Below are positions 4,009 to 11,017 of a DNA stretch of 11,017 bases, one piece after another. The notes beneath the pieces were generated by a model. The model made no database searches, was not told the DNA's origin, and saw only the letters and a program-made list of their open reading frames with translations. Source of the DNA: a virus (lineage: Duplodnaviria; Heunggongvirae; Uroviricota; Caudoviricetes); the IMG/VR virus record IMGVR_UViG_2778261354_000002, positions 1 through 11,017 of that record. The stretch is one strand, 5' to 3'. Numbering within the stretch: the stretch's first letter is position 1; each line of letters starts with the position of its first letter. The position numbers were made by a program, and so were the translations under genes.

Positions 4009-4037
4009 GCCCCTCCCGGATACGGAGGGGCTTTTTT
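4009..4037 (+). terminator. GC-rich hairpin (8-bp stem GCCCCTCC/GGAGGGGC) followed by T6; rho-independent terminator-like, oriented for the plus strand
   Basis: Stem 4009-4016 pairs with 4024-4031, loop 4017-4023, then CTTTTTTG at 4031-4038. It lies 15 nt past the esterase stop. On the minus strand the hairpin is followed by AAAGAAGAAAG rather than a U-run, so it is at most a weak or leaky terminator for the late operon. Confidence 0.4.
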
Positions 4038-5978: not shown

Positions 5979-6290
5979 TTACTCCTGTGGTGGCAAATCC
6001 TCTGCCCGTTCAGCTCTCTGTCTGTCCAGCCACGCAATGGCTGCTTTGTCTGCGTTGCATGTATCCAGCGCAGCCAGTAACTGGTCACTCCATTCTGTTA
6101 TCCGGTACCAGGTCACCGGTCGCTCCAGAAAGGGGATCGGCGTCTGCCTTGTCAGTACTTCCGGCACCGGCTCGTAAACGAGTCTGGTTTTCAACGTGTG
6201 CGATGTGCTGTTGCAGGCGCTCAGTAACAGCGCCGGGAGGATAAGCGCCAGCACACTTATCGTTCTGTACAGCCTTTTGCATTGCTTCAC
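5979..6290 (-). CDS. o-spanin (Rz1/LysC-like outer-membrane lipoprotein), 103 aa, apparent GTG start
   Basis: Lipobox LLLSAC after a basic, hydrophobic N-terminus (MKQCKRLYRTISVLALILPALLLSAC). The reading frame starts inside the i-spanin gene in another frame and extends 106 nt beyond its stop (overlapped architecture). The only in-frame start is GTG at 6290. Confidence 0.7.
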   Translation of the reverse strand: MKQCKRLYRTISVLALILPALLLSACNSTSHTLKTRLVYEPVPEVLTRQTPIPFLERPVTWYRITEWSDQLLAALDTCNADKAAIAWLDRQRAERAEDLPPQE

Positions 6291-6528
6291 GCCGTTGCTC
6301 TCCTTCGGTGATGCGTTGCTGATCCAGGATCCGGATGATGCTTATCACCCGGGAAAAATCGCTGTAAGCCTCGCGGACTTCCTGCATGGCGGCCCGGTTG
6401 TCCTCGATGATGTCCATCATCTGCTCCCGTCCCAGGCTTTCCCGTCCCTTGCGGTATGCCTCCCAGCCGACCAGGCCGCATAACAACAGGGTGATAATCA
6501 GCCAGGTGATGATTACCGGTGCCCTCAT
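6085..6528 (-). CDS. i-spanin (Rz/LysB-like), 147 aa from ATG at 6528
   Basis: ATGA overlap with the endolysin stop (6525-6528) and AGGAGAAGG upstream. N-terminal transmembrane helix (VIITWLIITLLLCGLVGW) followed by a charged, coiled-coil-like periplasmic domain. The track's longer 155-aa form from 6552 lacks an SD. Confidence 0.78.
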   Translation of the reverse strand: MRAPVIITWLIITLLLCGLVGWEAYRKGRESLGREQMMDIIEDNRAAMQEVREAYSDFSRVISIIRILDQQRITEGEQRREAMQKAVQNDKCAGAYPPGAVTERLQQHIAHVENQTRLRAGAGSTDKADADPLSGATGDLVPDNRME

Positions 6529-7064
6529 GTTGCCTTCTCCTGCGTGCACCATTTCCGGAAGTCGTCCCGCCGGTTAAACAGCCCCTGTGAATAGCGTCCG
6601 CCGCTGTTCACAAAGTCCGTCAGCCGGTTGCACATTGCCTTCCAGTTCCGGCTTTGTGCGTGCTTCCATATGGTTGTTCTGTGCATCCGTCCGTCACGCC
6701 CCTTAAACCACATAAGGCCGTGACATCCCAGATTGAACGCCGCATCCGTCATGGCCTCAAAATGCCGCTGTGGCATGTCTCGGCCCCTGAAATTCTGATT
6801 GATGCAGTTTTCCGCCCGTCGCAAATCATTCACCCAGCGACCGGCAACCTCCTGTTGGGTGTGGTGGCGGTCGGGCACGTTTCCCGTTGAGCCGCAGCCC
6901 ACGGTTTTCACCCCGGCGATGTCCCTGTACGGAACGGCCCGGCAGTCTTCCCAGGTGGCGATTTTTTCCTGTGCCTCCTGTGACGTTCTCAGCGCCCCGG
7001 GGGCCAGCGAAAAACCGAGCGCGACAATGGCGGCAACGGCATAGCGTTTAATCTGTCCTGACAT
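6525..7064 (-). CDS. SAR endolysin (T4/P21-type lysozyme, GH24-like), 179 aa
   Basis: N-terminal signal-anchor-release-like segment (YAVAAIVALGFSLAPGAL) followed by the catalytic E-x8-D-x5-T spacing (WEDCRAVPYRDIAGVKT). Start overlaps the holin stop by 17 nt. Confidence 0.85.
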   Translation of the reverse strand: MSGQIKRYAVAAIVALGFSLAPGALRTSQEAQEKIATWEDCRAVPYRDIAGVKTVGCGSTGNVPDRHHTQQEVAGRWVNDLRRAENCINQNFRGRDMPQRHFEAMTDAAFNLGCHGLMWFKGRDGRMHRTTIWKHAQSRNWKAMCNRLTDFVNSGGRYSQGLFNRRDDFRKWCTQEKAT

Positions 7065-7338
7065 GTGATTCCCCGTCTGCTTTCAGGGCTTCCAGAGCGC
7101 GCTTCTCGCTGCCTTTTAGTGGGCGGTTGTGCATCTGGTCGGCTATGCGTGCAATAAGCTCGTTTCGGCGTATCTGGGCCTGCTCCATGCGCCTTCTGTG
7201 CACCCATCCCCGCAGCAGTGAGAGCGCCCCCAGAATCAGCCCGGCCAGCGCCATCTTCTCGCTCATGGTCATCACACCGATACCGGTGACCATGACTGAC
7301 GTGAAATACGTGATGTGGTCGCAAATTCTCTGAAACAT
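7048..7338 (-). CDS. Putative holin (pinholin-like, two hydrophobic segments and a highly charged C-terminus), 96 aa from ATG at 7338; the track's 7350 start is a GTG
   Basis: ATG at 7338-7336 lies 2 nt after the gpX stop. Hydrophobic segments YFTSVMVTGIGVMTM and MALAGLILGALSLLRGW, then an R/K/E-rich tail. Sits directly upstream of a SAR endolysin at the P2 gene-Y position. Further in-frame Met codons at residues 16, 23, 25 and 29. Confidence 0.6.
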   Translation of the reverse strand: MFQRICDHITYFTSVMVTGIGVMTMSEKMALAGLILGALSLLRGWVHRRRMEQAQIRRNELIARIADQMHNRPLKGSEKRALEALKADGESHVRTD

Positions 7339-7340
7339 AA

Positions 7341-7541
7341 TCAATCCCACAACTGGACGGTTTCCCGCTGCCTGTCCGGTATGATTTCCGGCAACTCCAC
7401 TTCCTGACCTGCCGCCAGAAACACGGTGTTGCTCAGCCCCGGATTGGCAGCCAGGACGCGCTCCGTCACGCCTTTTGTCATGCCGTAATGACGCTGGCAG
7501 AGTAAATCAACGGTGTCGTCATCCTGTGCTCTCACTTTCAT
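7341..7541 (-). CDS. X: P2-family tail protein gpX, 66 aa
   Basis: Start overlaps the gpL stop as TAATG (7543-7539). Sequence MKVRAQDDDTVDLLCQRHYGMTKGVTERVLAANPGL...VELPE matches recalled P2 gpX (...CVRYYGRTEGVVETVLAANPGL...VELPD). The track's longer form from 7610 is an antisense-overlap artefact. Confidence 0.85.
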   Translation of the reverse strand: MKVRAQDDDTVDLLCQRHYGMTKGVTERVLAANPGLSNTVFLAAGQEVELPEIIPDRQRETVQLWD

Positions 7542-8035
7542 TAAATCAGCTCCGCATAAATCCGTTTCACGCCCCGGATGTCCGATATGGCCCACCGTGC
7601 ATCGCGCCACATGTCTTCAATCTGCATGTTCAGCGCGTCGGCCCGTCTGTCGCCTTTGTCGGTGGTGTCCACATCCCGCGAACGCTCAAGAACGCCCGCC
7701 CGTGTGAGTGCATACACCGCCCGGCGGTACCGGTGCACATTCACGCTCTCACCGTTGATTTGCGCGGCCGGAACGTCTGTCAGCGTCGACCGTCCCGCCG
7801 CCTCCTGCTCCTGCTTCCAGCCCTCAAGCTCTGCCGTCACGTGTGCCACGGCTTCGGTGGCAGCATGAAGCAGGCGCGAGGTGGTGGTGCGTCCCGGGAT
7901 GCGCATGGCAAGGCGCAGCTCCTTCAGCACGATATCCGGCCAGAACGCTCCGGCACTGACGCGCGCCTCTCCGTCGTCGGTATCTGTCGTGTCATCCGTG
8001 GCGTCGTTCACGCGGGTTCTTGCTACCATGCTCAT
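7541..8035 (-). CDS. L: P2-family head completion/stabilisation protein gpL, 164 aa
   Basis: AGGAG Shine-Dalgarno 9 nt upstream of the ATG at 8035. Position between M and X; size close to P2 gpL (about 169 aa). Confidence 0.8.
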   Translation of the reverse strand: MSMVARTRVNDATDDTTDTDDGEARVSAGAFWPDIVLKELRLAMRIPGRTTTSRLLHAATEAVAHVTAELEGWKQEQEAAGRSTLTDVPAAQINGESVNVHRYRRAVYALTRAGVLERSRDVDTTDKGDRRADALNMQIEDMWRDARWAISDIRGVKRIYAELI

Positions 8036-8144: not shown

Positions 8145-8969
8145 TCAGGTCGCCTTTCGTGCCGGTTTTGCGGCGGTTTTTTTCGTGGTCCGTCTGCCTG
8201 CGGCTTTTCTGGCCGTCGCTTTTGTACCCGGCTTCTGGCGCCCTGATGTTGATTTCGTTTTGCTTTTCTCTTCTGCCGTTTTTTCCGGTACCGGCTGCAC
8301 CTTTGACACTTTTCTGGCCAGCGTGGCGATTTCACGTTTTACGCCCGCAGCCGGATTGATGCGCATGGCTTCACGCAGCAGATTAAGCGACACGGTCAGG
8401 TCTCCCGTGCTGCCTGATGCGCGCCGTGAAAATGCCCGCGCCTTGTGTAGTTTTGCCCGAACCTGATCCGGCATGTCCTGGTCGCATACCAGAGCATCCA
8501 GCTCGTCCAGCGTACGGATATAACCGGATAAGTCGGTTTCACTGTTGGCGGCGGCTTCTGTCAGTACAACTTCGGCAATTTCTTCGGTGAGAACGGTCGC
8601 TGCATCCCGCCCGAAGTTGTCCGGCAGTGCCAGCCGGTGACGGATCACGTACTCACCAATGCGCAGCGCCAGCGGGTAATCCCGGCAGTCAATGGCCCAC
8701 ACCATCATGGTGGTAATCACTTCGTCCTGGCGTCCGCTGTCGCCTGCCAGTGTGCCGTCAATCCAGGCTTCAAAATCCGGTAAAAAGTGTTTTTTCAGCT
8801 CCGCTTTGGCGATGTTCGACTGCACGCCTTTGAGTTGCATCTGTGCCATGCGTAGCTGATGAAGAACCTGCTCATGCGCTGTGCGCGCCCTGGTCTCTTC
8901 GCGGCTGTCTGGTGTCACTCCCCGGCGCGCAGCCTCGCGCTGAAGATATCGTTGTGCCGGTGTCAGCAT
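8145..8969 (-). CDS. M: P2-family terminase small (endonuclease) subunit gpM, 274 aa, with a Lys/Arg/Thr/Ala-rich basic C-terminal tail
   Basis: AGGAG 8 nt upstream of the ATG at 8969. Conserved block DMPDQVRAKLHKA and AGVKREI as in recalled P2 gpM; basic low-complexity C-terminus is also present in P2 gpM. Confidence 0.85.
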   Translation of the reverse strand: MLTPAQRYLQREAARRGVTPDSREETRARTAHEQVLHQLRMAQMQLKGVQSNIAKAELKKHFLPDFEAWIDGTLAGDSGRQDEVITTMMVWAIDCRDYPLALRIGEYVIRHRLALPDNFGRDAATVLTEEIAEVVLTEAAANSETDLSGYIRTLDELDALVCDQDMPDQVRAKLHKARAFSRRASGSTGDLTVSLNLLREAMRINPAAGVKREIATLARKVSKVQPVPEKTAEEKSKTKSTSGRQKPGTKATARKAAGRRTTKKTAAKPARKAT

Positions 8970-9018: not shown

Positions 9019-10113
9019 TCACGCCTGTGCTTCAGGCTCTTCCTTGTCTTCCGGATCTTCACCGGCGAAAGAAATGCCCTCAATCAGCGCACACTTGCCG
9101 TAGTCTTCCACCACGTAGCAGTCGTTCATGGACTGATAGGTGGCAATACGGTTGTACTCAGGCTCTTCACGGATGAAGCGACGCAGTGACCCTTTCTGGA
9201 AGTAGACCGAAAGGTTGCTGAACGACGTGATCAGCATGGTGTCGTCCGGAAAGTACGGCGCAAAGAAGGTCGGCAGTGCGCCAATGGTGCGGGAGGCAGT
9301 GATCAGCTGTCCGGCGACCAGTTCCGTGTTCGGGTTGGTGGTGCTGATGGCGTTAATCATAGGCAGACGCAGCGTGTTGAACAGGTTGCGGCCCATGACA
9401 ACAACCAGATCCGGGGCGTCCTTGTGCCACTCGTCCAGTACGGATGAACGAATGTCGTTGACCATGGCGTCAGCGTTGCCGTAGTCGCCTTTTGCAACCA
9501 GTTTGTTTTCATGATCGCGGCGGGTCAGCGTCATTGCCTTCACGACACGCGTCGCGGCGTGTTCACGGATGTGTTTCAGCCACCCGGTGTTCACGTCCTG
9601 AAGTTTCGGGTTGGCGGAACGATCGGAAATGATGGCGTGTGACTCACCGTTAAAGCCAATCATGATACGGTCCAGCGCAATCTGTCGGGTGATTTGGGCA
9701 CTCAGCAGTTGCTGGAAGTTTTTCTGGCTGCTCCACGCGTCAATCTGTGCGTAGCTGATGAAGGTGTCGTAGTTCACCTGTTCGCAGCGATAACGACGTG
9801 ATGCCAGATCAGAGACGTCAGCGGGATTGCGTCGCTTCACGCCGTCACTGGTTGAGTTGGTGCTGGCGATGGGGCCAATGGTATTCACCAGGACTTTTTC
9901 ACCTTCCTGATCGTCAACGCCGATGCTGTTGATTTTTTTCAGCAGTTCGTCGCTCTCTTTGATGGCGTTTTCCATCTTCTGGTGAACAGCCGGATCAACG
10001 CTGAAGGTTTTCCCCAGTCGTTCCACGGTGGTTTCGGCAATCTCTGCCTGGCGTGCAAGATAGGCCTCAAGATTGTTGCGGCCTTCGCGAGAAAGCGTTA
10101 AGCGGTTTCCCAT
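9019..10113 (-). CDS. N: P2-family major capsid protein gpN, 364 aa
   Basis: Blocks GPIASTNSTSDG, IMIGFNG, DLVVVMGR, DCYVVEDYG align with recalled P2 gpN (GSIASTTDTAGG, IMAGFNG, DLVVIVGR, DYVVEDYA). GAGGA Shine-Dalgarno upstream of the ATG at 10113. Confidence 0.9.
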   Translation of the reverse strand: MGNRLTLSREGRNNLEAYLARQAEIAETTVERLGKTFSVDPAVHQKMENAIKESDELLKKINSIGVDDQEGEKVLVNTIGPIASTNSTSDGVKRRNPADVSDLASRRYRCEQVNYDTFISYAQIDAWSSQKNFQQLLSAQITRQIALDRIMIGFNGESHAIISDRSANPKLQDVNTGWLKHIREHAATRVVKAMTLTRRDHENKLVAKGDYGNADAMVNDIRSSVLDEWHKDAPDLVVVMGRNLFNTLRLPMINAISTTNPNTELVAGQLITASRTIGALPTFFAPYFPDDTMLITSFSNLSVYFQKGSLRRFIREEPEYNRIATYQSMNDCYVVEDYGKCALIEGISFAGEDPEDKEEPEAQA

Positions 10114-10128: not shown

Positions 10129-10965
10129 TTAAAAATCAGCCATGGCGTGGCTGTTGCCACCGGTTGCAGTAAAGCGATGTTCTTTATCTGCATCTTCGGT
10201 TTTCAGCTGCGCCTTCAGTTCAGTCAGTTCGCGGGTCAGGGCTTCCAGTGATGCCTTGTTACTGCGCTGTTGTTCTTCCATCGTATGGAAGCGTTCCAGA
10301 AGGCCGGCCTGTTCCGTGGCAATGCTCTCGACGGCTTCACGCACGTGAGCGAACTGCTCGCTGTCCGTGTTACGGGTTTTGCTGATGAGCGCCATGACGC
10401 GCGAAAACCATTTCCGGCTTTCTTCGGTGCTGTCCTGGACGGATGCCACCAGTTCCGCTTCCATGCATTCGGTGAACATGGCAACTTCACCTGTGCGGTT
10501 GCTGAACGTCATGATGCTGGCGCGCTGCTGGGCGGCAAATTTCAGTCGTTCGGTGCCGAGACTGGCCGGGGTGTCTGTCATTGCCAGGCCGATTACGTAA
10601 GGCCCGCCAACCGCTTCAATGTTGGGTTCAAGCTCGATGCTTGAGTAGATTTTCTTGCCGTCATTCAGCATTTGCGTCATGCGGTCGGTGGGCTCGATTT
10701 CGGCATACAGTGCGGTGCGACCGGCCAGTTTGCCCTCCGTGATTTCTTCGGTGGACAGAGAAATCACATCGCCCACGGCACTGAATTCACTGGACGGCAT
10801 ACGTGAAAGCATGTGCTCCACGTTCACCCGCGATCCCCACACGTCCGGGTCGTAGTTCTCTGCGGCCTGACGCAACATCTGGCCTGAAATTTCACGTCCG
10901 TCGATGGTTGTGCCCGAGACGGCGACGCGGAATTTTTTACGTACTGGCGCGTTTTTGGATGCCAT
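10129..10965 (-). CDS. O: P2-family capsid scaffolding protein gpO, 278 aa from ATG at 10965
   Basis: N-terminus MASKNAPVRKKFRVAVSGTTIDGREIS parallels recalled P2 gpO (MAKKVSKFFRIGVEGDTCDGRVIS). AAGGAG 7 nt upstream of the ATG at 10965; the track's longer form from 11001 has no SD. C-terminus ends TGGNSHAMADF. Confidence 0.88.
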   Translation of the reverse strand: MASKNAPVRKKFRVAVSGTTIDGREISGQMLRQAAENYDPDVWGSRVNVEHMLSRMPSSEFSAVGDVISLSTEEITEGKLAGRTALYAEIEPTDRMTQMLNDGKKIYSSIELEPNIEAVGGPYVIGLAMTDTPASLGTERLKFAAQQRASIMTFSNRTGEVAMFTECMEAELVASVQDSTEESRKWFSRVMALISKTRNTDSEQFAHVREAVESIATEQAGLLERFHTMEEQQRSNKASLEALTRELTELKAQLKTEDADKEHRFTATGGNSHAMADF

Positions 10966-11017
10966 GAAAAGTCTCCTTTCCGGAATTGTGTATTCCATCA
11001 TGCGGGGGGGAGGGGGG

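Follow-up and report, generated by a model that had tools for sequence, protein, structure and literature searches.

The closest characterised counterparts of the lysis genes analysed here are the Hol/Lys pair of phage HP1 and the endolysin Lyz of phage P1, the founding signal-anchor-release (SAR) endolysin. HP1 belongs to the P2 family, and its authors call Hol a pinholin and Lys a SAR endolysin (PMC7312051). HP1 Hol killed E. coli without lysis and did not release beta-galactosidase, and it was required for phage lysis (PMC7312051). Predictors were split between one and two membrane segments for this protein, the topology found by experiment was an odd N-in/C-out arrangement, and SignalP called a signal peptide in HP1 Lys (PMC7312051). 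The pinholin status of HP1 Hol is itself based on indirect evidence.

SAR endolysins have been described as starting with two to three basic residues, followed by a weakly hydrophobic membrane segment (PMC9239132), and as carrying a catalytic triad of the form Glu-8X-Asp/Cys-5X-Thr in the phage lysozyme domain (PMC3556154). Release of such an enzyme from the inner membrane and its activation by a pinholin or by depolarisation have been named as the definitive test (PMC9239132). In P1 Lyz, a disulfide keeps the triad Cys bound until the enzyme is activated (PMC3556154). In the P2-like coliphage Midge, too, a class II holin and a SAR endolysin have been annotated (PMC12697156). The combination of a pinholin with a SAR endolysin is a strategy that is already well described, including in the P2-family phages HP1 and Midge.

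The DNA studied here is a stretch of 11,017 nucleotides from a tailed-phage record (IMGVR_UViG_2778261354_000002), referred to below as the window. A preliminary description had proposed a phage-21-type pair of pinholin and SAR endolysin for this locus and had implied that the P2 setting was new. The latter was not borne out by the examples of HP1 and Midge; as HP1 is itself a P2-family phage, a P2-type operon is no surprising place for a pair of this kind. [quoted passage not shown] This estimate draws on sequence comparison and structure modelling.

The lysis cassette in its late operon

All credible genes of the window lie on the minus strand and make up a P2-type late operon (Table 1). The cassette is flanked upstream by O, N, M, L and X and continues downstream with LysB/LysC-type spanin genes and the genes R, S, V, W, J and I, which bears out the P2-type late operon context given in the preliminary description. 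An inserted esterase gene and a DUF1378 gene are also present in the window, ahead of these tail genes.

Table 1. Genes of the lysis cassette and of the upstream part of the late operon, with the profile matches found for them
Feature	Positions	Strand	Matches and remarks
Scaffold O	10129-11001	minus	
Capsid N	9019-10113	minus	
Small terminase M	8145-8969	minus	
Head completion L	7541-8035	minus	
Tail protein X (gpX)	7341-7541	minus	PF05489 1.9e-20; gene immediately upstream of holin
Holin-like gene, 96 aa	7338-7048	minus	phrog_1350 holin 1.8e-22
SAR-type endolysin, 179 aa, T4-lysozyme family (GH24 muramidase)	7064-6525	minus	Pfam PF00959 Phage_lysozyme 1.5e-21; phrog_7 4.8e-48
i-spanin (LysB/Rz-like), 147 aa from ATG 6528	6085-6528	minus	phrog_214 Rz-like spanin 8.7e-23
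o-spanin (LysC/Rz1-like lipoprotein)	5979-6290	minus	PF23793 LysC 4.1e-12; phrog_456 7.9e-22

The interval 6525-7338 extends exactly from the endolysin stop to the holin ATG. At its upstream junction, the X stop (TGA, 7343-7341) lies 2 nt before the holin ATG at 7338, and the X genes of relatives are called with a length of 201 nt by PGAP. Within the interval, the endolysin start overlaps the holin stop by 17 nt, as read from the junction sequence. At the downstream end, the i-spanin ATG at 6528 has a Shine-Dalgarno sequence (AGGAGAAGG) and overlaps the stop codon of the endolysin gene as ATGA. The program-called open reading frame of the i-spanin begins at 6552, and PGAP uses the ATG at 6528 in E. 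coli relatives. Because the i-spanin ATG overlaps the endolysin stop, there is no lysA-like gene between the endolysin and the spanins. The o-spanin gene overlaps the i-spanin gene, and its translation contains the lipobox LLSAC at residues 22-26.

Antisense and alternative-frame open reading frames across the interval had no Pfam match, and neither the holin nor the endolysin reading frame is a chance one, because both have significant homologues. A search of the window against Rfam gave no match, NCBIfam held no model matching the holin, the spanins or the esterase, and megablast of the cassette against the phage collection gave no match; relatives were found at the protein level. The cassette is real, intact and ordinary, and combines an HP1-type holin with a SAR endolysin of the P1 Lyz lineage and P2-type spanins.

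The holin-like protein and its start codons

The 96-aa protein has an N-terminus with a net charge of zero (residues 1-8), two weakly hydrophobic segments (9-25 and 29-46) separated by a Ser-Glu-Lys loop, and a tail of 50 residues (47-96) with 12 Lys or Arg, 8 Asp or Glu and 3 His. The two hydrophobic segments and the long charged tail of the preliminary description were thereby found again, and where that description had named three or more helices as evidence against its reading, no more than two hydrophobic segments were seen, with no third one by hydropathy. Segment 1 consists to 41% of Gly, Ser and Thr. The apparent insertion energy of each segment was about +2 kcal/mol, an approximate value that is marginal for insertion. 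In the AlphaFold2 (AF2) model (mean pLDDT 70), helices were predicted at residues 2-22, 25-70 and 76-89.

An alignment of the family revealed a net-neutral N-terminus (Arg4, Asp7), a segment 1 rich in Thr, Ser and Gly that ends in G-x-G-V-M-T, an acidic loop of three residues, a segment 2 with a conserved Gly33 and an invariant Gly37 (G33xxxG37), and an H-R-R-R stop-transfer motif followed by a helical charged tail. Besides the PHROG given in Table 1, the protein matched phrog_20 and phrog_4237. The Pfam family of HP1 holins (PF16080, Phage_holin_2_3) was matched by 12 of 14 family members; the window protein scored 19.1 bits (E 0.0013), below the gathering threshold of 28.8, and a distant member (P0018) scored 40.8 bits, above it. 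This member also touches the phage 21 holin model. When the family profile was compared with HP1 Hol, hhalign gave a probability of 91% (E 1e-6) and an alignment collinear over both segments; the match to the phage 21 holin S21 was weak (45%) and collinear. Given a PF16080 score below the cut-off together with the 91% profile link to HP1 Hol, the window protein is a divergent relative of that family and not a formal member. A search of PDB sequences with the holin returned only chance matches to PilF (E at least 0.3). Taken together, the comparisons support the view that the 96-aa protein is homologous to holins and class II-like, with two segments.

With a word-indexed protein search, no more than six close holin relatives came up. 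Exhaustive HMMER searching of 1.84 billion representative proteins yielded 13 holin clusters at 50% identity, a scan of genomes (one per species) yielded 19 holin loci, all in Enterobacterales, and IMG/VR contained 221 contigs with the family, typically 30-35 kb long, which is the size of a P2-like prophage. Pairing was followed in the 98 loci that could be assessed (79 from IMG/VR and 19 from genomes), and the gene after the holin coded in all of them (79/79 and 19/19) for a T4-type lysozyme with an uncharged N-terminal helix of 15-18 residues. Pinholins are expected to be encoded next to a SAR endolysin; in the window the two genes overlap by the 17 nt mentioned above, and they are neighbours in 98/98 loci.

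In RefSeq, the holin is labelled "phage tail protein" or "hypothetical protein". The former label was rejected, as the protein has no tail domain, contains two hydrophobic segments, matches holin PHROGs and occupies the position of the Y slot. Homology to HP1 Hol and the strict pairing provide a better annotation, which would cover about 220 viral contigs as well as prophages in a dozen or more genera of Enterobacterales. The family is small, lies between the HP1 and phage 21 families, and helps to define holin superfamily II.

Alternatively, the 96-aa protein might be a class II holin of the canonical large-hole kind whose partner is a SAR endolysin; it would time lysis, depolarise the membrane and let soluble proteins pass. 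Sequence does not reveal the class of a holin or the size of its holes, the window protein lies below the PF16080 cut-off, and SAR endolysins are known to function with canonical holins (P1 LydA/LydC, and R21 in a lambda S background; PMC9025707). However, the homologous HP1 Hol did not release beta-galactosidase (PMC7312051), a soluble endolysin never adjoins the holin family in the 98 loci, and the small two-segment layout with a weak first segment is that of S21-68. We therefore regard a large-hole holin as rather unlikely and prefer the pinholin. By definition, a pinholin is a small class II holin with two membrane segments, of which the first is weakly hydrophobic and able to leave the bilayer; its nanometre-scale holes kill and depolarise the cell but let neither a soluble endolysin nor a large marker protein out. 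Since hole size is a functional property that is not readable from sequence, the protein is called a putative pinholin here. What stood of the pinholin shape proposed before is the two-segment, class II-like holin homologue, whereas the name itself, which is defined by function, stays provisional.

Another explanation would make the 96-aa protein a membrane-tethered accessory factor, either releasin-like as Mu gp25, a lysis regulator or an antiholin, with lysis driven by spontaneous or assisted SAR release. If segment 1 were not inserted, the protein would be N-out with a single segment and a charged cytoplasmic domain of about 50 aa, similar to Mu gp25 (PMC9239132). SAR endolysins are also able to lyse cells without a holin (PMC9239132, PMC7312051), and the cassette contains no other holin candidate. 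Such a role nevertheless appears hardly probable: the protein matches holin PHROGs (phrog_1350, phrog_20 and phrog_4237), the GxxxG of segment 2 is conserved, and HP1 Hol, to which it is homologous, is by itself lethal to cells (PMC7312051). A releasin of the Mu type was rejected, as there was no DUF2730 match.

The preliminary description had further pointed to several in-frame Met codons of the putative pinholin, and had suggested that they might give holin and antiholin isoforms. Seven such codons are indeed present (1, 16, 23, 25, 29, 51 and 69), and 100 aa (MGLIM...) would result from a further start, the in-frame GTG at 7350, where annotation places the start of most homologues. The ATG at 7338 has no good Shine-Dalgarno sequence and lies 2 nt past the X stop, and translation of the holin is for these reasons probably coupled to X. 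The idea of isoforms found no support. In a dual-start holin/antiholin the two starts are split by at least one basic residue, whereas no Lys or Arg is encoded between the GTG at 7350 and the ATG at 7338 (M-G-L-I-M), the only closely spaced starts; the dual start of S21 reads M-K-S-M. Internal starts were rejected as well, because none of the internal Met codons (16, 23, 25, 29, 51 and 69) has a Shine-Dalgarno sequence and only Met23 is conserved in the homologue alignment, where it is a structural residue of the GVMT motif. HP1 hol has also been reported to be without a dual start (PMC7312051).

The endolysin and its cysteine pattern

In the endolysin, E39, D48 and T54 form the motif E-x8-D-x5-T exactly and lie within the phage lysozyme domain (PF00959; 77.5 bits, with a cut-off at 22.3). 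Residues 8-25 (YAVAAIVALGFSLAPGAL) are uncharged and include 6 Ala, 2 Gly and 1 Ser, with K6 and R7 just before them. Both features thus confirm what had been seen at first reading, namely the catalytic spacing and a SAR-like helix rich in Gly and Ala, and both elements of the SAR descriptions cited above, the triad and the basic residues ahead of a weakly hydrophobic segment, are present in this protein. The helix is composed to 50% of Ala, Gly, Ser and Thr and has a mean Kyte-Doolittle value of 1.86; the same measures are 55% and 1.94 for P1, 65% and 1.60 for R21, and 56% and 2.14 for HP1. The best match was P1 Lyz (1xjt, E 8.4e-36), with an alignment that begins inside the N-terminal helix, and the enzyme is 40% identical to HP1 Lys (E 1e-33) and 28% identical to R21 (3hde, E 1.2e-5). 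Sequence and model together support the assignment to lysozymes of the P1 Lyz type, with a SAR-like helix at the N-terminus.

The alternative to be weighed against this assignment is a conventional Sec signal peptide, whose cleavage would leave a soluble periplasmic enzyme under some other control. The n-, h- and c-region layout of the N-terminus resembles such a peptide, A21-P22-G23/A24 is a conceivable cleavage site, and HP1 Lys has its SignalP score (PMC7312051). A precedent for a wrong SAR call is T4 RI, whose long-held SAR domain turned out to be a cleavable signal peptide (PMC8385771). However, no conserved signal-peptidase site was found when the N-terminus was aligned with its relatives. 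The sole small-x-small motif, S19-L-A21, precedes P22, which is invariant in 31/31 relatives, and a Pro at +1 blocks cleavage by signal peptidase (PMC8385771, citing Barkocy-Gallagher and Bassford 1992). Close relatives have E, D or H in place of G23, and the helix aligns with the SAR domain of P1 Lyz. In the AF2 model of the endolysin (mean pLDDT 86.9), the N-terminal helix (residues 10-20, about 96) is packed on the enzyme body, as in active P1 Lyz; the model superposes on the active form (1xjt) with a TM score of 0.86 and an rmsd of 1.9 Å, and on the inactive form (1xju) with 0.55. In the relatives, the Cys on which P1 Lyz relies after release sits in this helix, so the helix is retained in the mature enzyme of the P1-type lineage. 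The signal-site and AF2 results support a retained helix that would join the active fold, and a cleaved signal peptide is considered unlikely. Export of the endolysin as a lipoprotein was rejected, as its N-terminus has no Cys.

The SAR-type endolysin of the window has six Cys residues (41, 57, 87, 114, 145 and 173), none of them in the N-terminal helix. A different, P1-type pattern is common to P1 Lyz, HP1 Lys and the endolysins of phiT5282H and ST16-OXA48phi5.4, the closest sequenced phages, whose enzymes are 63-66% identical to that of the window. It places one Cys in the helix, another two residues past the catalytic Glu and a third in the triad (E-x8-C-x5-T), with seven Cys in total. The window enzyme has Tyr8 in place of the helix Cys, Cys41, Asp48 in place of the triad Cys, and a new Cys57, with six Cys in total. 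Among the 98 holin-family loci (79 IMG/VR and 19 genome loci), 74 had the P1 pattern, 24 the window pattern and none a mixture. A neighbour-joining tree of the endolysins, built with the three switching columns masked, placed 31 distinct window-type sequences in one clade nested within the P1-type sequences. The clade therefore points to a single switch that has been kept since, and not to repeated covariation.

The thiol switch of P1 Lyz cannot operate in the window endolysin, because the Cys of the helix and that of the triad are both absent (Y8, D48, six Cys). With no helix Cys and an Asp in the triad, P1-style disulfide isomerisation would not take place. Control of R21 is reportedly conformational, and judged by elimination and by analogy with R21, activation of the window endolysin must be conformational too. 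Cys57 is probably the new partner of the retained Cys41.

It is tentatively proposed that this lineage records a natural conversion of a thiol-switched SAR endolysin of the P1 Lyz type to control without a free thiol, with three changes in one historical step. The changes are the replacement of the helix Cys by Tyr and of the triad Cys by Asp, and the gain of Cys57, all of which are kept in the 31 distinct sequences. If Cys41-Cys57 were a permanent staple, the lineage would show that covalent and purely conformational SAR control can interconvert; if it were a new cage on the catalytic hairpin that is opened by host Dsb enzymes, it would represent a third disulfide-based mode of control. Enzymes with and without the thiol switch, about 65% identical to each other, provide a natural pair for testing how SAR activation is controlled. 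The only mildly new element of the cassette is that this clade of endolysins has lost the thiol switch. The cassette as a whole has little bearing on phage biology at large.

Proposed mechanism and comparison with known systems

For the pair of pinholin and SAR endolysin, the following order of events is proposed. Sec would export the endolysin, whose weakly hydrophobic N-terminal helix, left uncleaved, would keep it in the inner membrane; its muramidase domain would be periplasmic and inactive. The 96-aa protein would accumulate in the inner membrane, where it would either form a hairpin of two helices (N-in, C-in) or have its segment 1 lying out of the bilayer. At a defined moment, this protein would oligomerise via segment 2 with its conserved GxxxG, and small holes would depolarise the membrane. 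Loss of the proton-motive force would then release the helix, which would pack on the enzyme body to give the active fold, and the LysB/LysC-type spanins would finally disrupt the outer membrane.

Among known systems, P2 itself shares the position of the cassette, as Y, K and LysA occupy the same late-operon slot between X and lysB/lysC. The genes in this slot differ, however. Y is unrelated to the window holin (hhalign 4.7%), K has neither an N-terminal hydrophobic helix nor the motif E-x8-D-x5-T, and LysA has no equivalent in the window. A relation to Y was rejected on the hhalign result. Of the two alignments suggested at the outset, the one with phage 21 S and R gave a weak result for S21 (hhalign 45%) and an E value of 1.2e-5 for R21, and the comparison with P2 Y and K gave 4.7% for Y and showed neither the helix nor the triad in K.

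Phage 21, a lambdoid phage, has the same strategy. R21 contains an Asp triad (E-x8-D-x5-T) and a Cys-free SAR helix, which implies conformational activation, and S21 has two segments, of which the first is weakly hydrophobic. The sequence relation of both proteins to those of the window is remote. S21 is 68 or 71 aa long, has a short tail and gives rise to an antiholin from a dual start, whereas the window holin is without a dual start. The S21 and HP1 holin families are both named type II by Pfam, and TCDB places the HP1 holin in the type II superfamily (PMC7312051). The strategy was thus largely right when it was first described as phage-21-type, but the nearest characterised references are HP1 Hol/Lys and P1 Lyz.

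P1 Lyz is the best match to the window endolysin in sequence as well as in structure, with a helix in the same position, and four C-terminal Cys and the Cys two residues past the catalytic Glu are conserved between the two. They differ in the remaining cysteines, as P1 Lyz has E-x8-C-x5-T, a helix Cys and seven Cys, whereas the window enzyme has an Asp triad, no helix Cys, Cys57 and six Cys. The partner pinholin of P1, LydD, is unrelated to the window holin and is encoded downstream of lyz (PMC9025707).

Differences from HP1 concern size, cysteines and position. HP1 Hol has 78 aa and reaches 84.6 bits with PF16080, compared with 96 aa and 19.1 bits for the window protein; HP1 Lys has C11 in the helix, C49 and C56 in the triad, in place of Y8, C41, D48 and C57; and the HP1 cassette follows the tail tube gene, whereas that of the window follows gpX. 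Both cassettes nevertheless share the gene order of holin, overlapping endolysin and LysB-like spanin. In both holins, a weak segment 1 is joined by a short acidic loop to segment 2, with a charged tail behind it, and neither has a dual start; their endolysins, at 40% identity, both begin with a SAR-like helix.

Gene starts and gene names around the lysis genes

In many relatives (related loci L019-L059 and other IMG/VR loci), no stop codon interrupts the endolysin frame for up to 17 codons ahead of the conserved M-K-x-x-I-K-K start, and this upstream stretch falls within the holin gene. As a result, mechanical ORF calls, and likewise some database proteins, come out too long or fused; in the related proteins P0012 and P0013, for example, the holin reads through to the helix of the endolysin. 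For the i-spanin, a start downstream of the mechanical call is likely. Its ATG at 6528 overlaps the endolysin stop as ATGA and comes with a strong Shine-Dalgarno sequence (AGGAGAAGG); it is likely to be the true start rather than 6552. The lysC gene was flagged as a pseudogene in one E. coli relative.

The holin homologue has been labelled "phage tail protein" or "tail protein" by RefSeq/PGAP and in one phage record, and is given as "hypothetical protein" in other records. The tail-protein label very probably arose as an annotation error and was then passed on.

Coordinates of the features discussed (window positions unless a related locus is named)
Feature	Position	Strand	Remarks
Esterase, 642 aa	4046-5974	-	DUF1737, SASA sialate O-acetylesterase and DUF6645; phrog_143
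DUF1378 membrane protein, 55 aa	3753-3920	-	
i-spanin, mechanical ORF	6085-6552	-	ORF start 6552; likely start ATG 6528
o-spanin ORF	5979-6290		GTG start; lipobox LLSAC
Holin homologue, related locus L001	7148-7438		
Holin homologue, related locus L003	2989-3273		
Holin homologue, related protein P0001			
C-terminus of gpM	8145-8300	-	tail of about 45 residues
GC-rich hairpin	4009-4031		8-bp stem, 7 GC pairs; 15 nt past esterase stop

C-terminus of the small terminase subunit

The tail of the small terminase subunit gpM is rich in Lys, Arg, Ala, and Thr and ends in ...KSKTKSTSGRQKPGTKATARKAAGRRTTKKTAAKPARKAT; it is a low-complexity basic extension.

Esterase and DUF1378 gene pair

Between lysC and the tail gene R, the window carries a gene pair encoding an esterase and a DUF1378 membrane protein. 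At the hairpin 3' of the esterase gene, a T-run follows the stem on the plus strand only, an A-run precedes it on the coding strand, and no gene is evident on the plus strand at this site. The hairpin could terminate antisense transcription, stabilise RNA, or be left over from the inserted module.

The pair was found in E. coli relatives and is missing from related locus L016 and from the phages phiT5282H and ST16-OXA48phi5.4. Stx-converting lambdoid phages carry NanS-p-type genes to which the esterase shows about 50% identity, and 347 phage records matched there. With this likeness and its patchy presence in relatives, the pair looks like a cargo module common to lambdoid and P2-like prophages.
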